Shown in pieces: positions 11,411 to 21,402 of a stretch of 32,000 bases of DNA; position 1 is the first letter of the stretch; each line of letters opens with the position of its first letter. Under the pieces are notes generated by a model that was not told the DNA's origin, searched no databases, and was given only the letters and a program-made list of their open reading frames with translations. Location: contig CAYRPF010000016.1 in assembly GCA_964426185.1 (NCBI GenBank), forward strand, positions 16,191 through 48,190, in the 5' to 3' direction. A program made the translations under genes and the position numbers. This DNA comes from an uncultured archaeon. GTDB taxonomy: Archaea > Asgardarchaeota > Lokiarchaeia > Sigyniarchaeales > Promethearchaeaceae.

Positions 11411-11968
11411 ATGACTAAAAACTCTAATACAATAGGGAAAATGCATTTTTATTATGGAATGGGTCCTGGAAAAACTTCCATTACACTTGGTCGGATAATC
11501 CGTGCTTTAGGTCATGGATTAAAACCAATTTTGATCCAATTTCTAAAGAAACATGACCCTTCTGGGAAGAAAGGCTTTTTCTATGGAGAATATATTACAT
11601 TAACTGAACTTCTCAATGTACCGATTATGCAATTCGGAAATTATCATTTTGTAAAAACTACCTCACAAGTTGAGGCTAACCGTCAAATGGCAGCAGATGC
11701 CCTCCAACAAATGCAAGAAATTTTGCACTCTGACGATTACGATCTAATTGTGTTGGATGAATTGGGTTCGATGATTGAACTGAACCTTTATTCCGAAGAG
11801 CAAATTTTCGCTCTTTTGGCTTCACGCGACCCCCATGCAGAGATTATAATCACTGGGCATCAGCCTATTGAAAAAATTATTGAAATCGCAGATTATGTCA
11901 CTCATCTGCAAGAAGTTAAGCATCCATTTCAACAAGGGATTCAAGCGAGAGAAGGCATCGAATATTGA
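11411..11968 (+). CDS. cobO: Cob(I)alamin adenosyltransferase, CobA/CobO/BtuR type
   Basis: YYGMGPGKT P-loop, IQFLK, YDLIVLDE, IIITG, ADYVT, KHPFQQGIQAREGIEY. Confidence 0.92.
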   Translation: MTKNSNTIGKMHFYYGMGPGKTSITLGRIIRALGHGLKPILIQFLKKHDPSGKKGFFYGEYITLTELLNVPIMQFGNYHFVKTTSQVEANRQMAADALQQMQEILHSDDYDLIVLDELGSMIELNLYSEEQIFALLASRDPHAEIIITGHQPIEKIIEIADYVTHLQEVKHPFQQGIQAREGIEY

Positions 11969-12070
11969 GCAAAAAGAAAATATTCAAAATGGATACCTCC
12001 GACATTATATCATTAAACATGTTTTTTTGGAACTATAACACTAATCAACCTTAATCAAATCGTGAGAAAT

Positions 12071-13783
12071 ATGACTGAAAATTCTCAAAAAAATCTCCAG
12101 CAAAAGCTGGTAGAAGAAACGGAACGATGGATTAATTCCACCGTAGCAAAATCCTTGGAAAAAGTGCCAGAACGGAAAAGAAAATTTAAAACTCTATCTG
12201 ATATCCCCGTAAAAGCTCTCTACACACCTGCAGACATTGCGGATCTAGATTATTTTAGGGATTTAGGCTTTCCAGGTGAGTTTCCATTTATTCGAGCGGC
12301 GCAACCCACAAACTATCGGGCGCGCTTTTGGACTATGAGGCAATTTGCGGGTTTGGGTACTGCGAAAGAAACAAACCAACGATTTAAATACTTAATCAAG
12401 AACGGCCAAACTGGATTATCGGTGGCTTTCCACCTACCTACTCTATATGGACATGAATCCGGGTCTCCTATGAGTGCGGGTGAGATTGGTAAAGAAGGTG
12501 TGGCTATCGATACACTTGCCGATATGGAAGTAGTCTTTGACGGAATTGACCTCAGTAAAATAAGCACTTCTATGACGATTAATGCCCCTGCTTCGATTTT
12601 ACTGGCAATGTATCTTGCCGTAGGAGAAAAAAAAGGTATTCCTATGGAAAAACTCACGGGAACTATTCAAAACGATATCTTAAAAGAATATCAAGCCCAA
12701 AAATCTTATATATTCCCTCCGGAGCCTTCAATGCGATTAATTGTAGATACAATTGAATTCTGTACAAATCACGTGCCTAAATGGAACACTATCAGCATCA
12801 GTGGTTATCATATTCGTGAAGCAGGATCCACCTCCGTTCAAGAGTTGGCTTTTACGTTGGCGAATGGTTTTGCTTATGTAGAAGCAGGAATGGAACGAGG
12901 ACTAAATGTGGATGATTTTGCTCCCCGATTATCTTTCTTTTTTAATGCACATAACAATTTCTTTGAAGAAATAGCAAAATACCGCGCTGCTCGTAGAATT
13001 TGGGCTCGTCACATGAAGGAGATCTACCATGCTAAAGATCCTCGTTCCTGGCGCTTGAGATTTCACACCCAAACTGCTGGAGTATCGTTAACCGCTCAAG
13101 AGCCCTATAACAACATCATTCGAGTTACTCTTCAAGCGTTGGCTGCGGTTCTAGGAGGTACGCAATCCTTGCATACCAATTCATTTGATGAAGCTCTGGC
13201 GCTACCTTCAGAAGAAGCGGTGAAAATCGCCTTGAGAACCCAGCAAATAATTGCCTATGAATCTGGTGTTCCTGATGTAATTGATCCTCTTGGTGGTTCC
13301 TACTATGTAGAATGGTTAACTAACCGGATGGAGGCAGAAGCAGAAAAATATTTCGAGCATATTAAAAAATTGGGTAATGGTTCTATGCTACAAGGGGCTT
13401 ATGTCGGAATAAAGAACAATTTTTACCAACGAGAGATTGCCAACTCATCCTATCATTATCAGAAAGAAATTGAATCGAAAGAGCTGGTACAAGTAAGCGT
13501 AAATAAATTCAATCAAGTCGCAGAAAAGGAGAAAAAACCCGAAATTCTTAAAATTTCCGAGAAAGTGGCTGAAGAACAGATTGCATCTCTTCAAAAGATA
13601 AAATCGGAACGTAATAATGAAAAAGCAAATGCTTGTCTGGAAATTTTGCGAACAAAGGCTAAAACGAATGAGAATTTAATGCCATATATTTTAGATGCTG
13701 TGAAAGCCTACTGTTCGGTGGGAGAAATCGTAGATGTATTTAGAGAAGTTTTTGGAGTTTATCGGGAGGAATCTATTTTTTAA
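12071..13783 (+). CDS. icmA: B12-dependent acyl-CoA mutase large subunit, isobutyryl-CoA mutase-like
   Basis: WTMRQFAG, QNDILKEYQAQK, SGYHIREAG, RFHTQT, LGGTQSLHTN, DPLGGSYY. Has Phe/Gln rather than Tyr/Arg at the specificity sites. ATG 12071 preferred over GTG 12062. The family call is firm; the icmA specificity call is an inference. Confidence 0.85.
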   Translation: MTENSQKNLQQKLVEETERWINSTVAKSLEKVPERKRKFKTLSDIPVKALYTPADIADLDYFRDLGFPGEFPFIRAAQPTNYRARFWTMRQFAGLGTAKETNQRFKYLIKNGQTGLSVAFHLPTLYGHESGSPMSAGEIGKEGVAIDTLADMEVVFDGIDLSKISTSMTINAPASILLAMYLAVGEKKGIPMEKLTGTIQNDILKEYQAQKSYIFPPEPSMRLIVDTIEFCTNHVPKWNTISISGYHIREAGSTSVQELAFTLANGFAYVEAGMERGLNVDDFAPRLSFFFNAHNNFFEEIAKYRAARRIWARHMKEIYHAKDPRSWRLRFHTQTAGVSLTAQEPYNNIIRVTLQALAAVLGGTQSLHTNSFDEALALPSEEAVKIALRTQQIIAYESGVPDVIDPLGGSYYVEWLTNRMEAEAEKYFEHIKKLGNGSMLQGAYVGIKNNFYQREIANSSYHYQKEIESKELVQVSVNKFNQVAEKEKKPEILKISEKVAEEQIASLQKIKSERNNEKANACLEILRTKAKTNENLMPYILDAVKAYCSVGEIVDVFREVFGVYREESIF

Positions 13784-13815
13784 AAAAATATAGAAAAATA
13801 AAAGAAGGTGTGAAG

Positions 13816-14211
13816 ATGGAACAAAAAATACGCATAATTGTGGCTAAACCAGGACTTGATGGGCATGATAGAGGTGCAAAAGTTATTTCTCGCGGATTGC
13901 GGGATGCTGGATTCGAAGTGATTTATACAGGATTACATCAGACTCCAGATGATATTGTACAAAGTGTGCTTCAAGAAGATCCAGATGCTTTATTGTTATC
14001 AATTCTTTCAGGCGCTCACCCTGTGTTATTTCCAGAAATAATGAAGAAATTGCATGAAAATGGGATTGATGATGTGTTAGTTCTCGGTGGTGGGATCATA
14101 CCGGAAGAAGATGTTCCAGCTTTAAAAGAAACTGGTATTGGTGAAGTATTCGGACCTGGAACCAAGATTCAAGAAATAGCCGATTATATCCGTGCACATT
14201 TGAAACGCTAA
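13816..14211 (+). CDS. icmB: Acyl-CoA mutase cobalamin-binding small subunit
   Basis: KPGLDGHDRG (DxHxxG), SILSG, GGGIIP, FGPGT. GAAGGTG SD precedes ATG 13816. Confidence 0.92.
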   Translation: MEQKIRIIVAKPGLDGHDRGAKVISRGLRDAGFEVIYTGLHQTPDDIVQSVLQEDPDALLLSILSGAHPVLFPEIMKKLHENGIDDVLVLGGGIIPEEDVPALKETGIGEVFGPGTKIQEIADYIRAHLKR

Positions 14212-14285: not shown

Positions 14286-15335
14286 ATGACTTTATCTAAG
14301 ATATCTGATGAAAATATAAAAAAATTTATAGATTTACTCAAAGATCCTACCGATTCTGTCAAAAAAAAGAGAGCTTTAGCCAGATTAATTACCTTCATCG
14401 AAAATGGTGGACCTGAAATTGCTAAAAAAATCATACCTCAAATTTATCATTTGACAGGTCACGCTCAAATAATTGGGATTACTGGAGCACCAGGTTCGGG
14501 AAAATCTACTTTAACTGCAAAAATTGCCGCACACTTCTTAGATCAAGGATTAAAAGTTAGTGTGGTGGCAGTTGATCCTACTTCTCCTTTTAGCGGTGGC
14601 GCTCTTTTAGGTGATCGAATCCGGATGAAAGATATATTTACTCATCCTAATTTCTTTATCAGATCAATGGCCAATAGAGGTCAACTTGGCGGATTAGCCA
14701 TGGCTACAAAGGATGTAATCCATGTTTTAGATGCATATCATAGTGATATAATCATTGTTGAAACGGTAGGTGTGGGGCAATCGGAAATTGATATTTTTAA
14801 AAGCGCTCATACTACCTTGGTTATCACACCACCTGGTTTGGGAGATGAAATTCAAGCAATCAAGGCTGGGTTGATGGAAATTACCGATATTTTTGTAGTA
14901 AATAAAATGGATCGAGAAGGTGCTGACAAAAGGGTGGCTGAATTGGAAACTATGCTAGATTTTGCTGAAAATATTGATGTGCAAAGTGATCAAACCCAAG
15001 CTAAAGTGGTGCGTTGTGATGGGTGGCGTCCACCGGTCATTAAGACTAATGGTCTTACAGGAGAAAATGTTCAATTACTCTTGGAGAACATCAAAAAACA
15101 TCAAGAATTTTTAGAAAAATCAGGTTTTAAAAAGCGACGATTGCAATTTCGATATAAACACTATATTATTGAGATATTAAAGTATTTTCTTGTGAAAAAT
15201 GTGGAAGAAATAGTGTTTACCAATGAGAAAATTAATGAATTTATCGAAAAAATCCTAAGTTATGAGCATGGTTCAGACCCCTATTCTATCTCAGAGGCTA
15301 TTATGGAAATATTTCGCGATAGGTATTTCACATGA
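14286..15335 (+). CDS. meaB: MeaB/ArgK/MMAA GTPase chaperone for the B12 mutase
   Basis: GITGAPGSGKST, AVDPTSPFSGGALLGDRIRM, VETVGVGQSE, GDEIQAIKAG, VNKMD. Confidence 0.95.
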   Translation: MTLSKISDENIKKFIDLLKDPTDSVKKKRALARLITFIENGGPEIAKKIIPQIYHLTGHAQIIGITGAPGSGKSTLTAKIAAHFLDQGLKVSVVAVDPTSPFSGGALLGDRIRMKDIFTHPNFFIRSMANRGQLGGLAMATKDVIHVLDAYHSDIIIVETVGVGQSEIDIFKSAHTTLVITPPGLGDEIQAIKAGLMEITDIFVVNKMDREGADKRVAELETMLDFAENIDVQSDQTQAKVVRCDGWRPPVIKTNGLTGENVQLLLENIKKHQEFLEKSGFKKRRLQFRYKHYIIEILKYFLVKNVEEIVFTNEKINEFIEKILSYEHGSDPYSISEAIMEIFRDRYFT

Positions 15336-16102
15336 ACCCCCCGATTCTTCTAGTATATGGTGGTGGCAAATTTGGAACGATAGTATTTCAAAAATTTCAT
15401 TCCACCCATCGCCTGCTGATAATTGATAATGATCGAGAGTGTGCTGCAGCTCAACTTCCTATTCCTAAAATTATTGAGAAAAACCTCAAAGTTCAAACTG
15501 CTCAAATAATGCAAACAAAGGATTCATGTTTTATTTTAGGTGATATCGAGACCGTTGTCTATTTATTGGACAAAATTTCAATTGATTTTCTGATCCCAGT
15601 GGCACCAATTCACATTATGAAGGAGATACTAGTTTCACATTTCATTCAGCAATTTCCTTCTTTATTGATTTCTGAAGATGTAGAACTTGCATTGCCTTCG
15701 GATTTAATCCCCCCAGAACTCCAAATATTTTCAAATTCGCCCCAAACTCTTTATCTTTCTTATGCGAAATGGGAAGAACGATGCCCTGACAATTGTCCAG
15801 GGCCAACTGGATATTGCCGTATTCACAAACGCCTTAAACCGATTTCAGTTACTGATCTTTGTAATACTGCCTGGCCTGGACCTTTTACCTTCATTTTTGA
15901 GAGTTGGCAGCTTTCTCCTGGGATTGGAGGTATTCCTATTTCTAGTATTCAAAAACATTTTAATCGTTTAAAACATGCAGGTACAGAAATAATTAATTCA
16001 TTTAGTGAATTGAATGTTTCAAATCGCACCATTATAATTGGAACAACATGCAATTGCCATGGGGTTGTATCAGCTATTAAAATCAGCAATAAAAAAAATT
16101 AA
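15332..16102 (+). CDS. Uncharacterised Rossmann-like protein with Cys clusters, translationally coupled to meaB
   Basis: ATGA overlap with meaB; VYGGGKFG...IID; CPDNCPGPTGYC; SWQLSPGIGG; TCNCHGV. Confidence 0.7.
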   Translation: MNPPILLVYGGGKFGTIVFQKFHSTHRLLIIDNDRECAAAQLPIPKIIEKNLKVQTAQIMQTKDSCFILGDIETVVYLLDKISIDFLIPVAPIHIMKEILVSHFIQQFPSLLISEDVELALPSDLIPPELQIFSNSPQTLYLSYAKWEERCPDNCPGPTGYCRIHKRLKPISVTDLCNTAWPGPFTFIFESWQLSPGIGGIPISSIQKHFNRLKHAGTEIINSFSELNVSNRTIIIGTTCNCHGVVSAIKISNKKN

Positions 16103-16551
16103 TTTGGTGGTGTTCGCATCAAATTGTGATATTCTTTTTCGAGATCAGCGATGTAAGCTCGCTGATTTTGAAGTTCTTGAATAACATTACTTAGATGGAA
16201 GAATACATGTTTTTGAATGTCGTCTGTATGGTCTCCTGCTTGGACAAATCGAGTAATTTTTACTATTTGTTGGGCGCTGTCATGGTATCTCTTATTTATA
16301 TTCTCCAGTTCTCGCGAAGTATGAATGTCATAGTAATAATTAACTGCATTTGCTATATTTTGAATATTTATTGAAACCATTTTACATTTCAATGAACTTT
16401 TGATGCACTCTTCTAGTTTTATTCGGATTTCTTCTAATTTTCGGTTTAATTTTTGTCGTTTTTCTTCATAGTCTTCTTGAGTGAATTTATGCTCAACTTT
16501 AATGATATTTTTTTCATTTTTTCTTTTACCAAACATGTGATTTTGAACCAT
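16099..16551 (-). CDS. Hypothetical helical/coiled-coil protein
   Basis: Strong AAGGAGG SD upstream; heptad-like charged segments; its stop overlaps that of the convergent gene at TTAA 16099-16102. Confidence 0.6.
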   Translation of the reverse strand: MVQNHMFGKRKNEKNIIKVEHKFTQEDYEEKRQKLNRKLEEIRIKLEECIKSSLKCKMVSINIQNIANAVNYYYDIHTSRELENINKRYHDSAQQIVKITRFVQAGDHTDDIQKHVFFHLSNVIQELQNQRAYIADLEKEYHNLMRTPPN

Positions 16552-16819: not shown

Positions 16820-19237
16820 TTAACTGATTTCTATCATCGACCATATCGTAGCAGCTAATGATAAATTTCCAGAATAAAACCATTTTAAGCCAATCGAAAA
16901 TAACAGCCAGTTAATTTGCTCCGAAAAACCATAAAATTCCTCAATAAAGGTGAAGCTGTTAAACTGTTCCAAGAAATTAATCATGTTAGGAGTAGGCAAG
17001 TTAATAAATTCTGCCACTAACGATGCATTCATGTATTTTACTATTTCAGGAATTTCGGCTTGTTGATTCATTAAGCGCACTGCGTTTAAAAAATTTACAT
17101 AAATATCCAGCGAAGAAAATTGAAATGAACCAAGATAATCATCCCAATTATTGGAAATTTGGGCTAATTTTAAATGAGAAAGTAAAATTTTTTGGGGTAG
17201 CAAATCTTCATTTAAGTTCCCAGTTAAATAAATTTGAAAGTTTTGTAGTCCTTCTCCCAATTTTGCACGCCTGGTAATCAGCGGATTACGAGGAATCATT
17301 AAAACTTGGGGTCCTCCCCTTGGATTCTCATAGACGTAGAACTGATGGGGTATTTTTTCAAACTTGAAATAATATAAGGAATTAGTAGGAAGGTTGATAC
17401 CGTGGCTGCACAAAAATTCTATCTCAGCTTGATTTAATACTTTACCTTGATTATGCTTTTTAAGATACACATATATCTTTTTTAAAGATTTAGTTTCAAG
17501 ACTATCTTGAACAAAATTATCTACTGCGGTGGTTGAAATTAGTCGGGTTTGATTTGGATCGATAATTTGGGTAGATTCGTGAGATGAAAACCATGTCGAA
17601 TCAATTAATGAATTGGTTATTTCTTCAGTGTTTTTAGAAAAAGGGGCTGTAATAGTATCAAGATTCGGTGCAATTGACTCAGGAAGTAAATCTAAATCCA
17701 TATTTTGGGTCATATTTTCTTTATTGGCTTGAGAAGAGAATAAAATTTGAGTTTTATTATCTAAATCGGCATTTTCTTGCTGATTTTGGAATAATTTTTG
17801 GGGTTGATAATCTAAATGTAAGAAATATTTTTGCTTTTTCATCTCCTCAATTTTCTGCCAATTGACTTTGGGCTTTAATTTTTCAATTTCTTGGGCGATT
17901 TTCTGCGTATTTTTTTCCATATTTATTTCATAGCTGAGTAAATGGAGCTCTTCCAATAATAGGAATATTTCTTCAGTATTTTGTTTTTTTCTTGCCTCTT
18001 GAATCGCCTTTGATATGATTTTATACCTGATTTTATTGATTTTTTCCAATTCAGCTTGAATCTTCTTAATTTTCTTAGCATTCTCACTTTTTTGATAATG
18101 GTATTTTGCTTCATTTAGATAAGATACTTTTTTTTGTAATTCTTCTGGTGAAATATCAGAAAGATTATGGGCTTGGGATGTTGCAAAATCCCCCTGTTTT
18201 TCATAGAATTGATGGATTTCTCCAGAAATGCGTGTCAATTCCTTCTTTGCATTAATTTCTTTGAAAATATGATATGCTTTTTCATAATATTCTAATGCAA
18301 TCTTGGTATCGTTTTGAGTCTCTAATTCTTTGGCTTTGTTCTCATACCACCTTCCAAGTTGGATATTTACTTCCAGGAATTTAGTTTTAGCTTGCTTCTT
18401 ATGGCTTTCATCTCCAATAGAGTGGAATTTTGTATAAGCAGATTTATATTTCTGGATACTGGCACAATATTCATGTTGTTGGGCAAGCATATCTCCATGA
18501 TTGAGATCGATATATGCCAGTTTGCTAATTAACTTCATCTGTGCTTTTTGAAACATTAATGTGATTTTCTTTGGATTTTCTTTTTCTTTTATTAAATTCT
18601 TTATTTTTTGCCACGTTTCGAGCGCCTGAATGATCTTATCTTGCGATATTACCTGATCAAATTTATCGAGTAAGTAGTAGGTTATTTCTTTTTCCACATA
18701 TTGCTGAATTTTTTGGAATTCTGACTTATTTGGATTGAAGAATTTAGTCAATTGTGGAATGCGTAAGAAGAAATCCGTATAAAGTAATGAGACATAACCA
18801 AATAAGTTAATAATTTCCGAAAAATGGCGTTCTAAATGGCGTCTCTTTAGTTCTACACTCCGAATAGTGGTTAATACCTTAAAAACCCATGTTTCAAAGA
18901 GTTTAAATGCATTTTTTGAGTTATTAATCAAAGTTTTATCAAAATCATTTAAAAATTGATAAAGTGAATTTTGGAGATCCAGCAAATTGATTAAAAAAAC
19001 ACTCGATTTGCGGTCATCATTACCTCGAACTGCTTCTTCAGCCTTTGCCAATTGCTTATCAAAGAGAATTTTTAGACAGAGAATAAAATTCTGCTCTACT
19101 TCAAATCTGTCCGTTGGAGATAGAATTTCGCTGTTACGTTTTAAATAATAGAGGTATTTTAATGCAGGTTGAAATTGTCCACTTTTTAAGAACCTTACTG
19201 CTTTTGCAACAGTAATTTTAGGGGGATTACCAACCAT
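16820..19237 (-). CDS. Large helical-repeat (TPR/SNAP-like) protein with a low-complexity linker and an unknown C-terminal domain
   Basis: Repeated TPR-like helix pairs (GDMLAQQHEYCASIQKYKSA; AKELETQNDTKIALEYYEKAYHIF; KVSYLNEAKYHY) and a polar linker at about aa 475-585. Confidence 0.65.
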   Translation of the reverse strand: MVGNPPKITVAKAVRFLKSGQFQPALKYLYYLKRNSEILSPTDRFEVEQNFILCLKILFDKQLAKAEEAVRGNDDRKSSVFLINLLDLQNSLYQFLNDFDKTLINNSKNAFKLFETWVFKVLTTIRSVELKRRHLERHFSEIINLFGYVSLLYTDFFLRIPQLTKFFNPNKSEFQKIQQYVEKEITYYLLDKFDQVISQDKIIQALETWQKIKNLIKEKENPKKITLMFQKAQMKLISKLAYIDLNHGDMLAQQHEYCASIQKYKSAYTKFHSIGDESHKKQAKTKFLEVNIQLGRWYENKAKELETQNDTKIALEYYEKAYHIFKEINAKKELTRISGEIHQFYEKQGDFATSQAHNLSDISPEELQKKVSYLNEAKYHYQKSENAKKIKKIQAELEKINKIRYKIISKAIQEARKKQNTEEIFLLLEELHLLSYEINMEKNTQKIAQEIEKLKPKVNWQKIEEMKKQKYFLHLDYQPQKLFQNQQENADLDNKTQILFSSQANKENMTQNMDLDLLPESIAPNLDTITAPFSKNTEEITNSLIDSTWFSSHESTQIIDPNQTRLISTTAVDNFVQDSLETKSLKKIYVYLKKHNQGKVLNQAEIEFLCSHGINLPTNSLYYFKFEKIPHQFYVYENPRGGPQVLMIPRNPLITRRAKLGEGLQNFQIYLTGNLNEDLLPQKILLSHLKLAQISNNWDDYLGSFQFSSLDIYVNFLNAVRLMNQQAEIPEIVKYMNASLVAEFINLPTPNMINFLEQFNSFTFIEEFYGFSEQINWLLFSIGLKWFYSGNLSLAATIWSMIEIS

Positions 19238-19300
19238 AGATAATAGTAAAACATTCCACCAAAAAAATCCTTACCATCAAAGAGATTACACGGATTTTTT

Positions 19301-20434
19301 TTATCTTGGTGTAACGAAAATATTCAAACCAGAATCATCTATTTCGGTAAATGACTCAGATTTATTCTTTTCAATTTCTGTAATTTCCTGCCAAATTTCA
19401 ATTTTTTTCCGATTAATTAACTGTAAAAGATAAAGAACTGTTTGAACTATACCTTCAGGTTCTGGAGAAATTATAAGAGAAAGAAACGAAACTGGGCAGT
19501 TAGGCTTATAACATTCTTTAATTTTTTGGTATAAATCCGATATCTGTTCTTCCACATATACTCGCTTTTCTTCCGCCTTTTTTAAAAGATTTGCATGCAG
19601 AACATTATCTGGGCTTTTAGTCAGTGGAGAAAATTTCAATGTTTTTGAAGGCGTACGAATTTGAGTTTTAAACGTTTTTATCAAAGCGGAACCTAATTCA
19701 GAGAAATTTACCTTGCGATATACCTTTCGTAAAGGTGAAGATAAATAGCGGTTTCCGTCTCGATCTTGGTTGAAGAAGCGATTAATTGATGTCATTTGCG
19801 CCAACATAGCATTCCTTTCTTGTAAGTACTGCGATAATTGCGCATCATCTACAATTTCGGTGTTATTGTCAAATGCTTGACGTTTTTGTGATTTACCTAA
19901 AATTGATTGCATAGATATCTTTCTATTGGCGAAGGAATCATCATCTTCGAAATCTTCATCATTATTTTGGAATTCATCTTCCAAAACTTCAATTTCTTCT
20001 AAAAAGTCTTGGGTATTTTGAGAATCATGCAGAATACTGGTTGATTTGACATTTATTAAACGTGAAGTCGAATAAAGAACCCGACCTCCTATCCGAAGTT
20101 GAATCTCGCTGTTGGAGTATAATCGCTTTTGAATTTTTTCCAAAGTGGATTTAACATCTATTTGCCATGGATTCTGTTTGAGTAGCTTGGAAAATTCATC
20201 AGAATCAATTAGTATCCCCAAATCTGCAGCTTTTTGGGAAATATTCAAATTTGCAGAAGAAGAAAATGAAGAAGAATTTATGTGTGAGATGGAAGGTGGA
20301 GATTGAATGTAGGGATAAGAATGAGAGGAAATGCTATTTTCAATATCTTTTACAATATTCGAGTGATTTTGATTCGATTTTTGAAAATTTTTCTTCAAAT
20401 CGTTATCATTGTTTAATTTAAAGTCGTTGTTCAT
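19301..20434 (-). CDS. scpA: Kleisin ScpA (segregation and condensation protein A)
   Basis: NPWQIDV...LRIGGRVLYSTSRLINVKS N-terminal domain; PLRKVYRKVNFSEL; C-terminal winged helix VSFLSL...VQTVLYLLQLINRKKIEIWQE...IFV. Confidence 0.85.
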   Translation of the reverse strand: MNNDFKLNNDNDLKKNFQKSNQNHSNIVKDIENSISSHSYPYIQSPPSISHINSSSFSSSANLNISQKAADLGILIDSDEFSKLLKQNPWQIDVKSTLEKIQKRLYSNSEIQLRIGGRVLYSTSRLINVKSTSILHDSQNTQDFLEEIEVLEDEFQNNDEDFEDDDSFANRKISMQSILGKSQKRQAFDNNTEIVDDAQLSQYLQERNAMLAQMTSINRFFNQDRDGNRYLSSPLRKVYRKVNFSELGSALIKTFKTQIRTPSKTLKFSPLTKSPDNVLHANLLKKAEEKRVYVEEQISDLYQKIKECYKPNCPVSFLSLIISPEPEGIVQTVLYLLQLINRKKIEIWQEITEIEKNKSESFTEIDDSGLNIFVTPR

Positions 20435-20679: not shown

Positions 20680-20988
20680 ATGATAGATTCAAAGGCTATT
20701 AAAGCAATAATTTCTAAATTTATGCAAGATGAACAGACACGCGCTGTTATCATTTGCGATTCAGAAGGACTACCTATTCAATCTTCCTATCGAGGGGAAC
20801 AGATCGAGAAAACTGAAGAAATTGCGGCTTATATTACGGCATTAATCTCACGAGGGAAGCAAACCGTTGAAGTTTTAGGAGAAGGGCGTTTGAATTTTGT
20901 TCGTTTAGAAACCGATAAAGGAGAAGTCATGATTGCTCCTCAGGAAGGTTTAATTTTAATTGTGTTACGAAATACAACAGAAATATAA
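20680..20988 (+). CDS. Roadblock/LC7 (MglB/LAMTOR-like) domain protein
   Basis: AVIICDSEGLPIQSS...EEIAAY...GRLNFVRLETDKGEVMIAP..LILIVL. Confidence 0.9.
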   Translation: MIDSKAIKAIISKFMQDEQTRAVIICDSEGLPIQSSYRGEQIEKTEEIAAYITALISRGKQTVEVLGEGRLNFVRLETDKGEVMIAPQEGLILIVLRNTTEI

Positions 20989-21060
20989 TTTTTAAACATT
21001 AAATTTAAATTACTAATTTTTATCGCTAATTTTTTATAGATTTTTAACTAATTGACATAT

Positions 21061-21402
21061 ATGAACATCGAAGAAGTGGGACCGAAATTAGCTGCCGCAA
21101 TGGATGCTGTTCCAGTTTGTGAAGGCTTAATATTGGCAAAAATAAGCGGGGAAGTATTGATTGGACAAACTCTTACAGAGCTGAATCATGGAGAAATCGC
21201 TAAATCTTTTAGTAAACTTTTCGAAGTGGACTTTTCTTATTTAGAAAGAGGAAAATTGCAAGATTACACCATTAATTTGGAAAATGGGTCAATTATTGCG
21301 GTTAGAAATGAAGATCATATGTTGATTGGTTTACTTGGTGCTGACGGGAAATCTTCTGTTGGTTTATTAGTGAGGCAATTAAGAAACATTATGTGGAAGT
21401 AA
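21061..21402 (+). CDS. Roadblock/LC7 domain protein with C-terminal helix
   Basis: EGLILAKISGEVL...GKLQDYTINLENGSIIAV...SVGLLVRQLRNI. ATG 21061 preferred. Confidence 0.8.
   Translation: MNIEEVGPKLAAAMDAVPVCEGLILAKISGEVLIGQTLTELNHGEIAKSFSKLFEVDFSYLERGKLQDYTINLENGSIIAVRNEDHMLIGLLGADGKSSVGLLVRQLRNIMWK

Follow-up and report, generated by a model that had tools for sequence, protein, structure and literature searches.

PF27252, a candidate cobamide-processing factor encoded with the acyl-CoA mutase genes of a Lokiarchaeia genome

Analysis of a 32,000-nucleotide stretch of Lokiarchaeia DNA (the window) showed that the last gene of a cobO-mutase-meaB run encodes a member of Pfam family PF27252 (AF_1314_C), which probably prepares B12 for use in unrelated anaerobic microbes. 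The probability that PF27252 has some role in B12 handling was put at about 0.75. The more specific reading, CblC-like processing of cobamides to the cob(II)amide form, is tentative, at a little under even odds. A B12 link of PF27252, broader than the acyl-CoA mutase, was well supported by its gene neighbourhoods, which recurred in B12 contexts, and by its occurrence, which was nested with that of the mutase and RACo. To our knowledge, the conversion of imported or spent B12 by anaerobes to the cob(II) form used by adenosyltransferases and methyltransferase activators is poorly known.

The gene, its operon and its family

The ORF encoding P0001 was a real, single-copy gene of the host genome, a member of Lokiarchaeia. 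As proposed in the initial annotation, it was the last plus-strand gene of the run, and its ATG overlapped the meaB stop as ATGA (Table 1). This overlap was not general, gaps of 12-87 nt being found in most relatives measured; the gene lay directly after meaB in 15/16 Lokiarchaeia and likewise in locus L141. No plasmid match was found, and a promoter/terminator scan came out at about chance level. Phe and Gln at the specificity positions of the mutase are an established mark of the isobutyryl-CoA mutase type; Gln was present in 16/16 related mutase loci read, and Phe was present wherever its motif was readable.

Table 1. Features of the window around the PF27252 gene.
Feature	Position	Strand	Length, basis or remarks
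Flavoprotein, CoA-disulfide reductase/NADH oxidase-like; real gene	9829-11172/11262		divergent from the operon
cobO/cobA-type ATP:corrinoid adenosyltransferase	11411..11968	+	PF02572 (1e-48)
Acyl-CoA mutase large subunit, Phe/Gln specificity residues (isobutyryl-CoA mutase-type)	12062..13783	+	PF01642, motifs
Mutase B12-binding small subunit, DxHxxG intact	13810..14211	+	PF02310, TIGR00640
MeaB G-protein chaperone	14286..15335	+	PF03308, TIGR00750; stop overlaps PF27252 gene start
Candidate cobamide-processing factor, PF27252 (AF_1314_C)	15332..16102	+	256 aa (P0001)
Small Rossmann-like domain, N-terminal, TrkA-N/pre-ATP-grasp-like	15332..15607	+	residues 1-92; GxGxxG 10-15, Asp32
AF_1314_C domain, C-terminal	15608..16102	+	H94, S143, C151, C155, C162, C240, C242, H243
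ORF convergent with the PF27252 gene, genus-conserved	16099-16551		150 aa; no Pfam match; stop overlaps PF27252 gene stop by 4 nt
ScpA/kleisin-like gene (19301-20434) directly before TPR-like gene (805 aa)	16820-20434		order kept in same-genus relatives
Roadblock/LC7 gene, then a second small ORF	20680-21402		typical of Asgard archaea

The nearest named homologues of P0001 were hypothetical proteins of Promethearchaeota (Lokiarchaeia). One search returned 143 homologues, and 500 representatives were obtained at 50% identity, a number beyond chance that indicates a modest-sized family. The precomputed annotation PF27252 was carried by P0001 and by all 120 homologues listed; the family has no function attached to it. 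PF27252 was also the family of the top atlas matches (0.94-0.95), with structure matches at TM 0.86 and 0.76. Its namesake is the uncharacterised AF_1314 of Archaeoglobus fulgidus, which belongs to the same Pfam family as P0001. Members were seen in sequences from Asgard archaea, Methanosarcinaceae, Syntropharchaeia and Bathyarchaeia-like and Ignisphaera-like organisms, and a Desulfobacterota-type subfamily was represented by 404 genome stretches. Local Pfam, NCBIfam and PDB sequence searches with P0001 gave nothing useful, and an atlas feature search that left out PF27252 gave no usable match. No study of PF27252 and no paper naming it were found in the literature searched. The protein had been described as a candidate new factor; in the sense of an unrecorded family this did not hold, PF27252 having been catalogued previously. 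What is new is the B12 link, which comes from the present analysis and is reasonably supported.

Conserved residues and predicted structure

The motifs named in the initial annotation were all present in P0001: GGGKFG (10-15), Asp32 ending strand 2, QLSPGIGG (193-200), C151-x3-C155-x6-C162-x2-H165 and C240-x-C242-H243-G244. Alignment of 127 diverse members showed that G12, S143, C151, C155, C162, G199, C242 and H243 were invariant, and that D32, H94 (115/127), S191, T238 and C240 (121/127) were near-invariant. Among these residues, H94, S143, S191 and T238 had been missed by the earlier reading. The Cys/His residues were conserved as a set, but H165 was not (T in 64, F in 27 and H in 19 of the 127 members). 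The conserved ligands (C151, C155, C162, C242, H243, C240 and H94) were numerous enough (at least 3-4) for an Fe-S or Zn candidate, and they may form a metal site. In-frame TGA/TAG codons flagged in two Asgard matches were normal stops and did not encode selenocysteine.

The predicted Rossmann start was also supported, with GxGxxG, strand 5-9, helix 13-22 and strand 27-32 with its acidic end. The glycines were kept in nearly all members (G10 in 126/127, G12 in 127/127, G15 in 125/127), and position 32 was acidic in 127/127 (125 D, 2 E). An acidic residue at strand 2 favours NAD, FAD or an adenine nucleotide over NADP, so the NADP binding admitted by the initial annotation was not upheld. No known B12-binding motif was present in P0001.

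The AlphaFold2 model of P0001 (pLDDT 95, pTM 0.90) paired a short Rossmann domain (residues 1-92) with a C-domain of the alpha/beta type, which bears the Cys loop and a terminal CxCH hairpin; the C-domain modelled separately also had a pLDDT of 95. The full-length model had no Foldseek match at E<=0.001, and its best VIA match, an aspartate kinase (Z 8.2, rmsd 2.2, 89 aligned), covered the N-domain only. No solved structure clearly matched the C-domain when it was modelled alone (best Z 3.8, rmsd 4.0, 83 aligned), which does not prove a new fold. The likeness of the N-domain to TrkA-N, SDR and pre-ATP-grasp domains was weak. The TrkA-N match of P0001 (E 0.095) was below the cut-off, and 39/127 members matched at E<=0.01 (best 2.6e-9). 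P0001 had in common with TrkA-N/RCK-N and pre-ATP-grasp proteins the short Rossmann sheet, the GxGxxG and the strand-2 Asp; however, the match spanned the first 40-100 residues only, the C-domain was unrelated, and there was no channel or ATP-grasp partner.

Gene neighbourhoods and presence across genomes

Enrichment of homologues near B12 genes, the check on which the initial annotation had staked its proposal, came out in its favour. In 80 Desulfobacterota loci, the commonest neighbours were CobO, RACo/AcsV, MeaB, CobW-like GTPases, MtaA, CbiR and thioredoxin-like proteins. The observed numbers exceeded the expected ones for CobO (14 vs 0.19), RACo (13 vs 0.35) and MeaB (10 vs 0.26), corresponding to 75-, 37- and 39-fold, respectively, over their density in five genomes. 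A B12 marker was present in 31/80 of these loci vs 1/40 random windows, a comparison whose p-values are overstated by the kinship of the genomes and by a marker list chosen partly from the same 80 loci.

The B12 contexts were spread over about eight separate parts of a rough family tree, and they differed in kind. In unrelated archaea, the gene was embedded in clusters for cobamide salvage and in btuFCD clusters. The gene lay between cbiB-cobS-cobD-cobY-cbiZ-cobT and btuF-btuF-btuC-btuD in L148, adjoined cobZ-btuFCD-cobT-cobS-cobY in L056 and headed btuFCD...cobS in L245; cbiM and cbiD were near it in L058. In L146 and L147 it was found among MtrH, B12-binding, URO-D and cobW genes, between MtrH/B12-binding and URO-D. 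In L155 and L165 it was convergent on cobalamin-riboswitch btuFCD operons, and none of 13 loci had a riboswitch immediately 5' of the gene. Other copies stood apart from B12 genes. When the Desulfobacterota were sampled evenly, strict B12 markers were present within about 7 kb at 0/35 loci; two adjoined riboswitch-btuFCD, and most copies were orphans amid housekeeping genes. A strict marker was present in 1/13 other Asgard loci, and B12-handling genes were found at none of the Methanosarcinales-type and Helarchaeota loci.

Three further arrangements were observed. A stand-alone B12-binding-like domain with a degenerate DxHxxG was paired with MeaB at L090 (4237-4677) and related Desulfobacterota loci, within thioredoxin/MtaA/CbiR clusters and mostly with no mutase large subunit nearby. 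In several orphan contexts, namely L166 (6220-7056), L161, L167, L168, L170, L171, L174 and L184, the gene directly upstream encoded a protein of 275-295 aa that was similar from locus to locus, had an apparent signal peptide and gave no NCBIfam match. In one Asgard family (L043-L045), the gene was divergent from an operon of ferredoxin and a 482-aa unannotated oxidoreductase-like protein.

Comparison of 151 Desulfobacterota genomes, in which kinship inflates significance, showed that PF27252 was present in 36/112 mutase-positive vs 0/39 mutase-negative genomes. By genotype, the counts were 34/79 where mutase and RACo occurred together, 2/33 where the mutase occurred alone, 0/27 where RACo occurred alone and 0/12 where both were missing. 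Because the 36 carriers all had a mutase, even orphan copies lay in B12-mutase genomes, mostly with methyl-corrinoid systems too. B12-binding domains were encoded in 13/13 other Asgard carriers. In a sister family of the host, full-length PF27252 was found in 4/42 genomes, as against the mutase in 41/42, MeaB in 41/42 and CobO in 38/42; since 38 genomes of a family in which nearly all keep the mutase system lacked PF27252, the gene is dispensable. The status of an obligate, MeaB-like mutase accessory was rejected on the 4/42 and 36/112 counts. No recurring replacement gene followed meaB in 20 mutase loci lacking the PF27252 gene.

The B12 users of the host were a MetH-like enzyme, the acyl-CoA mutase and lysine 5,6-aminomutase. 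MetF and the 820-aa MetH-like enzyme were encoded on contig C51 (4567-8627); contig C9 (29965-30780) carried the gene for the lysine 5,6-aminomutase beta subunit, and contig C84 (883-1572) that for a 229-aa corrinoid protein. CobS, CobT, RACo and BtuF were not found in the host genome (92% complete), nor was CobS in the closed genomes of two relatives (G001 and G011). The failure to find a BtuF-type binding protein (PF01497) contrasts with the several B12 enzymes that the host encodes. As neither CobS nor CobT was found, it is unlikely that PF27252 assembles or remodels the nucleotide loop in the host, and the factor likely acts on the intact cofactor or on client enzymes. Searches for CblC and CblD in four Lokiarchaeia gave no match, and the control genomes likewise gave none.

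Proposed role and comparison with known B12 factors

PF27252 may be a soluble, single-copy, dispensable factor with which anaerobes process the complete cobamide between its arrival and its use. It would bind incoming or spent cobamide (aquo, cyano, methyl and damaged adenosyl forms), take off the upper ligand and/or reduce Co(III), and yield cob(II)amide. This product would feed the adenosyl branch, through CobO and then mutase loading gated by MeaB, and also the methyl branch, through MetH and RACo-served corrinoid proteins, in parallel with CblC in animals. This job was proposed because uptake, adenosylation and methyl-corrinoid activation have the making of cob(II)amide in common. The cobamide binding, the metal, the nucleotide and all of the chemistry are putative. 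The ligand of the Rossmann half may be NAD(H)/FAD or a different adenine nucleotide; an Fe-S cluster or Zn may sit on C151/C155/C162 with C240 or C242; and cobalt may be ligated by a thiolate or a His of the CxCH end. A point against such a mechanism is its redox wiring, since reduction of an Fe-S cluster by NAD(H) requires a flavin.

The initial annotation had instead proposed that the protein is dedicated to one of two tasks, Co(II)-to-Co(I) reduction for CobO or reactivation of the acyl-CoA mutase, and that the NADH flavoprotein encoded nearby could supply the electrons. The conserved position after meaB, the rank of CobO as the most enriched neighbour, the mutase in 36/36 Desulfobacterota carriers and the lack of the gene in all 27 RACo-only genomes agree with such a role. 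However, the gene was missing from most sister-family genomes that have mutase, MeaB and CobO, which speaks against a needed CobO reductase, and general reductants can serve adenosyltransferases (PMC4083273). Specificity for the mutase system was likewise not supported, as the gene was also part of clusters for uptake/salvage, of modules with corrinoid methyltransferases and of the genomes of two Asgard carriers, G066 and G073 (92% and 95% complete), in which no mutase was found. The flavoprotein was not syntenic, being missing from all 38 related operon loci tested, and so the suggested electron source was not supported; the reductase or reactivase reading is distinctly unlikely. A salvage or lower-base remodelling enzyme (a CbiZ/CbiR/CobZ-like step) would account for cbiZ, cbiR, cobZ, cobT and cobS among the neighbours, but it is very improbable, as, with no CobS or CobT found in the host and no CobS found in the two closed relatives, its products could not be rebuilt.

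The neighbourhood and presence data also fit a non-catalytic, CblD-like carrier or sorting chaperone. Its Cys/His residues would hold cob(II)amide before its transfer to CobO or to B12-binding domains, with ATP/ADP at an RCK-like Rossmann site as the gate; the TrkA-N matches of the N-domain and the frequent G3E GTPase neighbours (MeaB and CobW-like proteins) are in keeping with this. The four invariant Cys, together with an invariant Ser and an invariant His, point instead to a catalytic site with a cofactor, and the carrier was considered rather unlikely. It is also unlikely that PF27252 lacks B12 specificity and that the gene of a general oxidoreductase, of the thiol/metal (Zn, Co, Fe-S) or the acyl-CoA-related kind, drifted beside B12 genes in some lineages. 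The many orphan contexts amid housekeeping genes and the common thioredoxin-type neighbours would suit such an enzyme, but repeated independent placement in differing B12 clusters of both archaea and bacteria is hard to obtain by drift.

Processing of cobamides to cob(II)amide remained the preferred reading. As a candidate for it, PF27252 is small and soluble, its model is confident, its C-domain had no match in solved structures, and its conserved residues are clear targets for mutation. The B12 set of the host was animal-like (MetH-like enzyme, mutase, MeaB and adenosyltransferase), with no loop-assembly genes found. If the reading is true, the factor would show how B12 is handled in relatives of the eukaryotic host lineage. 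In its fullest form, which is doubtful, PF27252 would be a prokaryotic counterpart of CblC on an unrelated scaffold, a Rossmann domain with a new Cys/His (Fe-S) domain, that strips upper ligands and moves one cobamide pool between methyl and adenosyl uses in anaerobes, including Asgard archaea.

Among known systems, RACo/RamA/AcsV and the GlmL/MutL-type reactivases are also B12 maintenance factors, and RACo is a frequent neighbour of PF27252. They are ASKHA-fold ATPases, whereas P0001 has no such domain; neither P0001 nor the 127 members gave a RACo/RamA or GlmL/MutL profile match, while true RACo neighbours scored 1e-100. PduS has an FMN domain and two CxxCxxCxxxC ferredoxin motifs and is much longer than P0001. 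P0001 lacked this motif and had no RnfC-like profile match, and no flavin-reductase profile match placed it or the 127 members with CobR. CobR and PduS carry out corrin reduction for adenosyltransferases, with a protein axial ligand to cobalt (PMC4083273). Like P0001 they are encoded with adenosyltransferases, and cobalt reduction is proposed for P0001 as well. BtuM decyanates cobalamin via a Cys axial ligand, a precedent for Cys-thiolate cobalt ligation and for decyanation tied to uptake (PMC6072759). BtuM is a membrane transporter, whereas P0001 is a soluble alpha/beta protein.

The fold of CblC is nitroreductase-like, and glutathione or flavin is used in its reactions. P0001 had no sequence match to it (MMACHC profile, E<=0.1; none among the families matched by the 127 members) and has instead a Rossmann start and a Cys cluster; for the nitroreductase-like fold, the fold searches gave no clear match either way. 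In CblC, dealkylation or reduction yields cob(II)alamin (PMC11910325). CblC/MMACHC serves both the MetH and the mutase branches (PMC11910325); B12 users of both these kinds are present in the host, and PF27252 is proposed to occupy the same place in the pathway.
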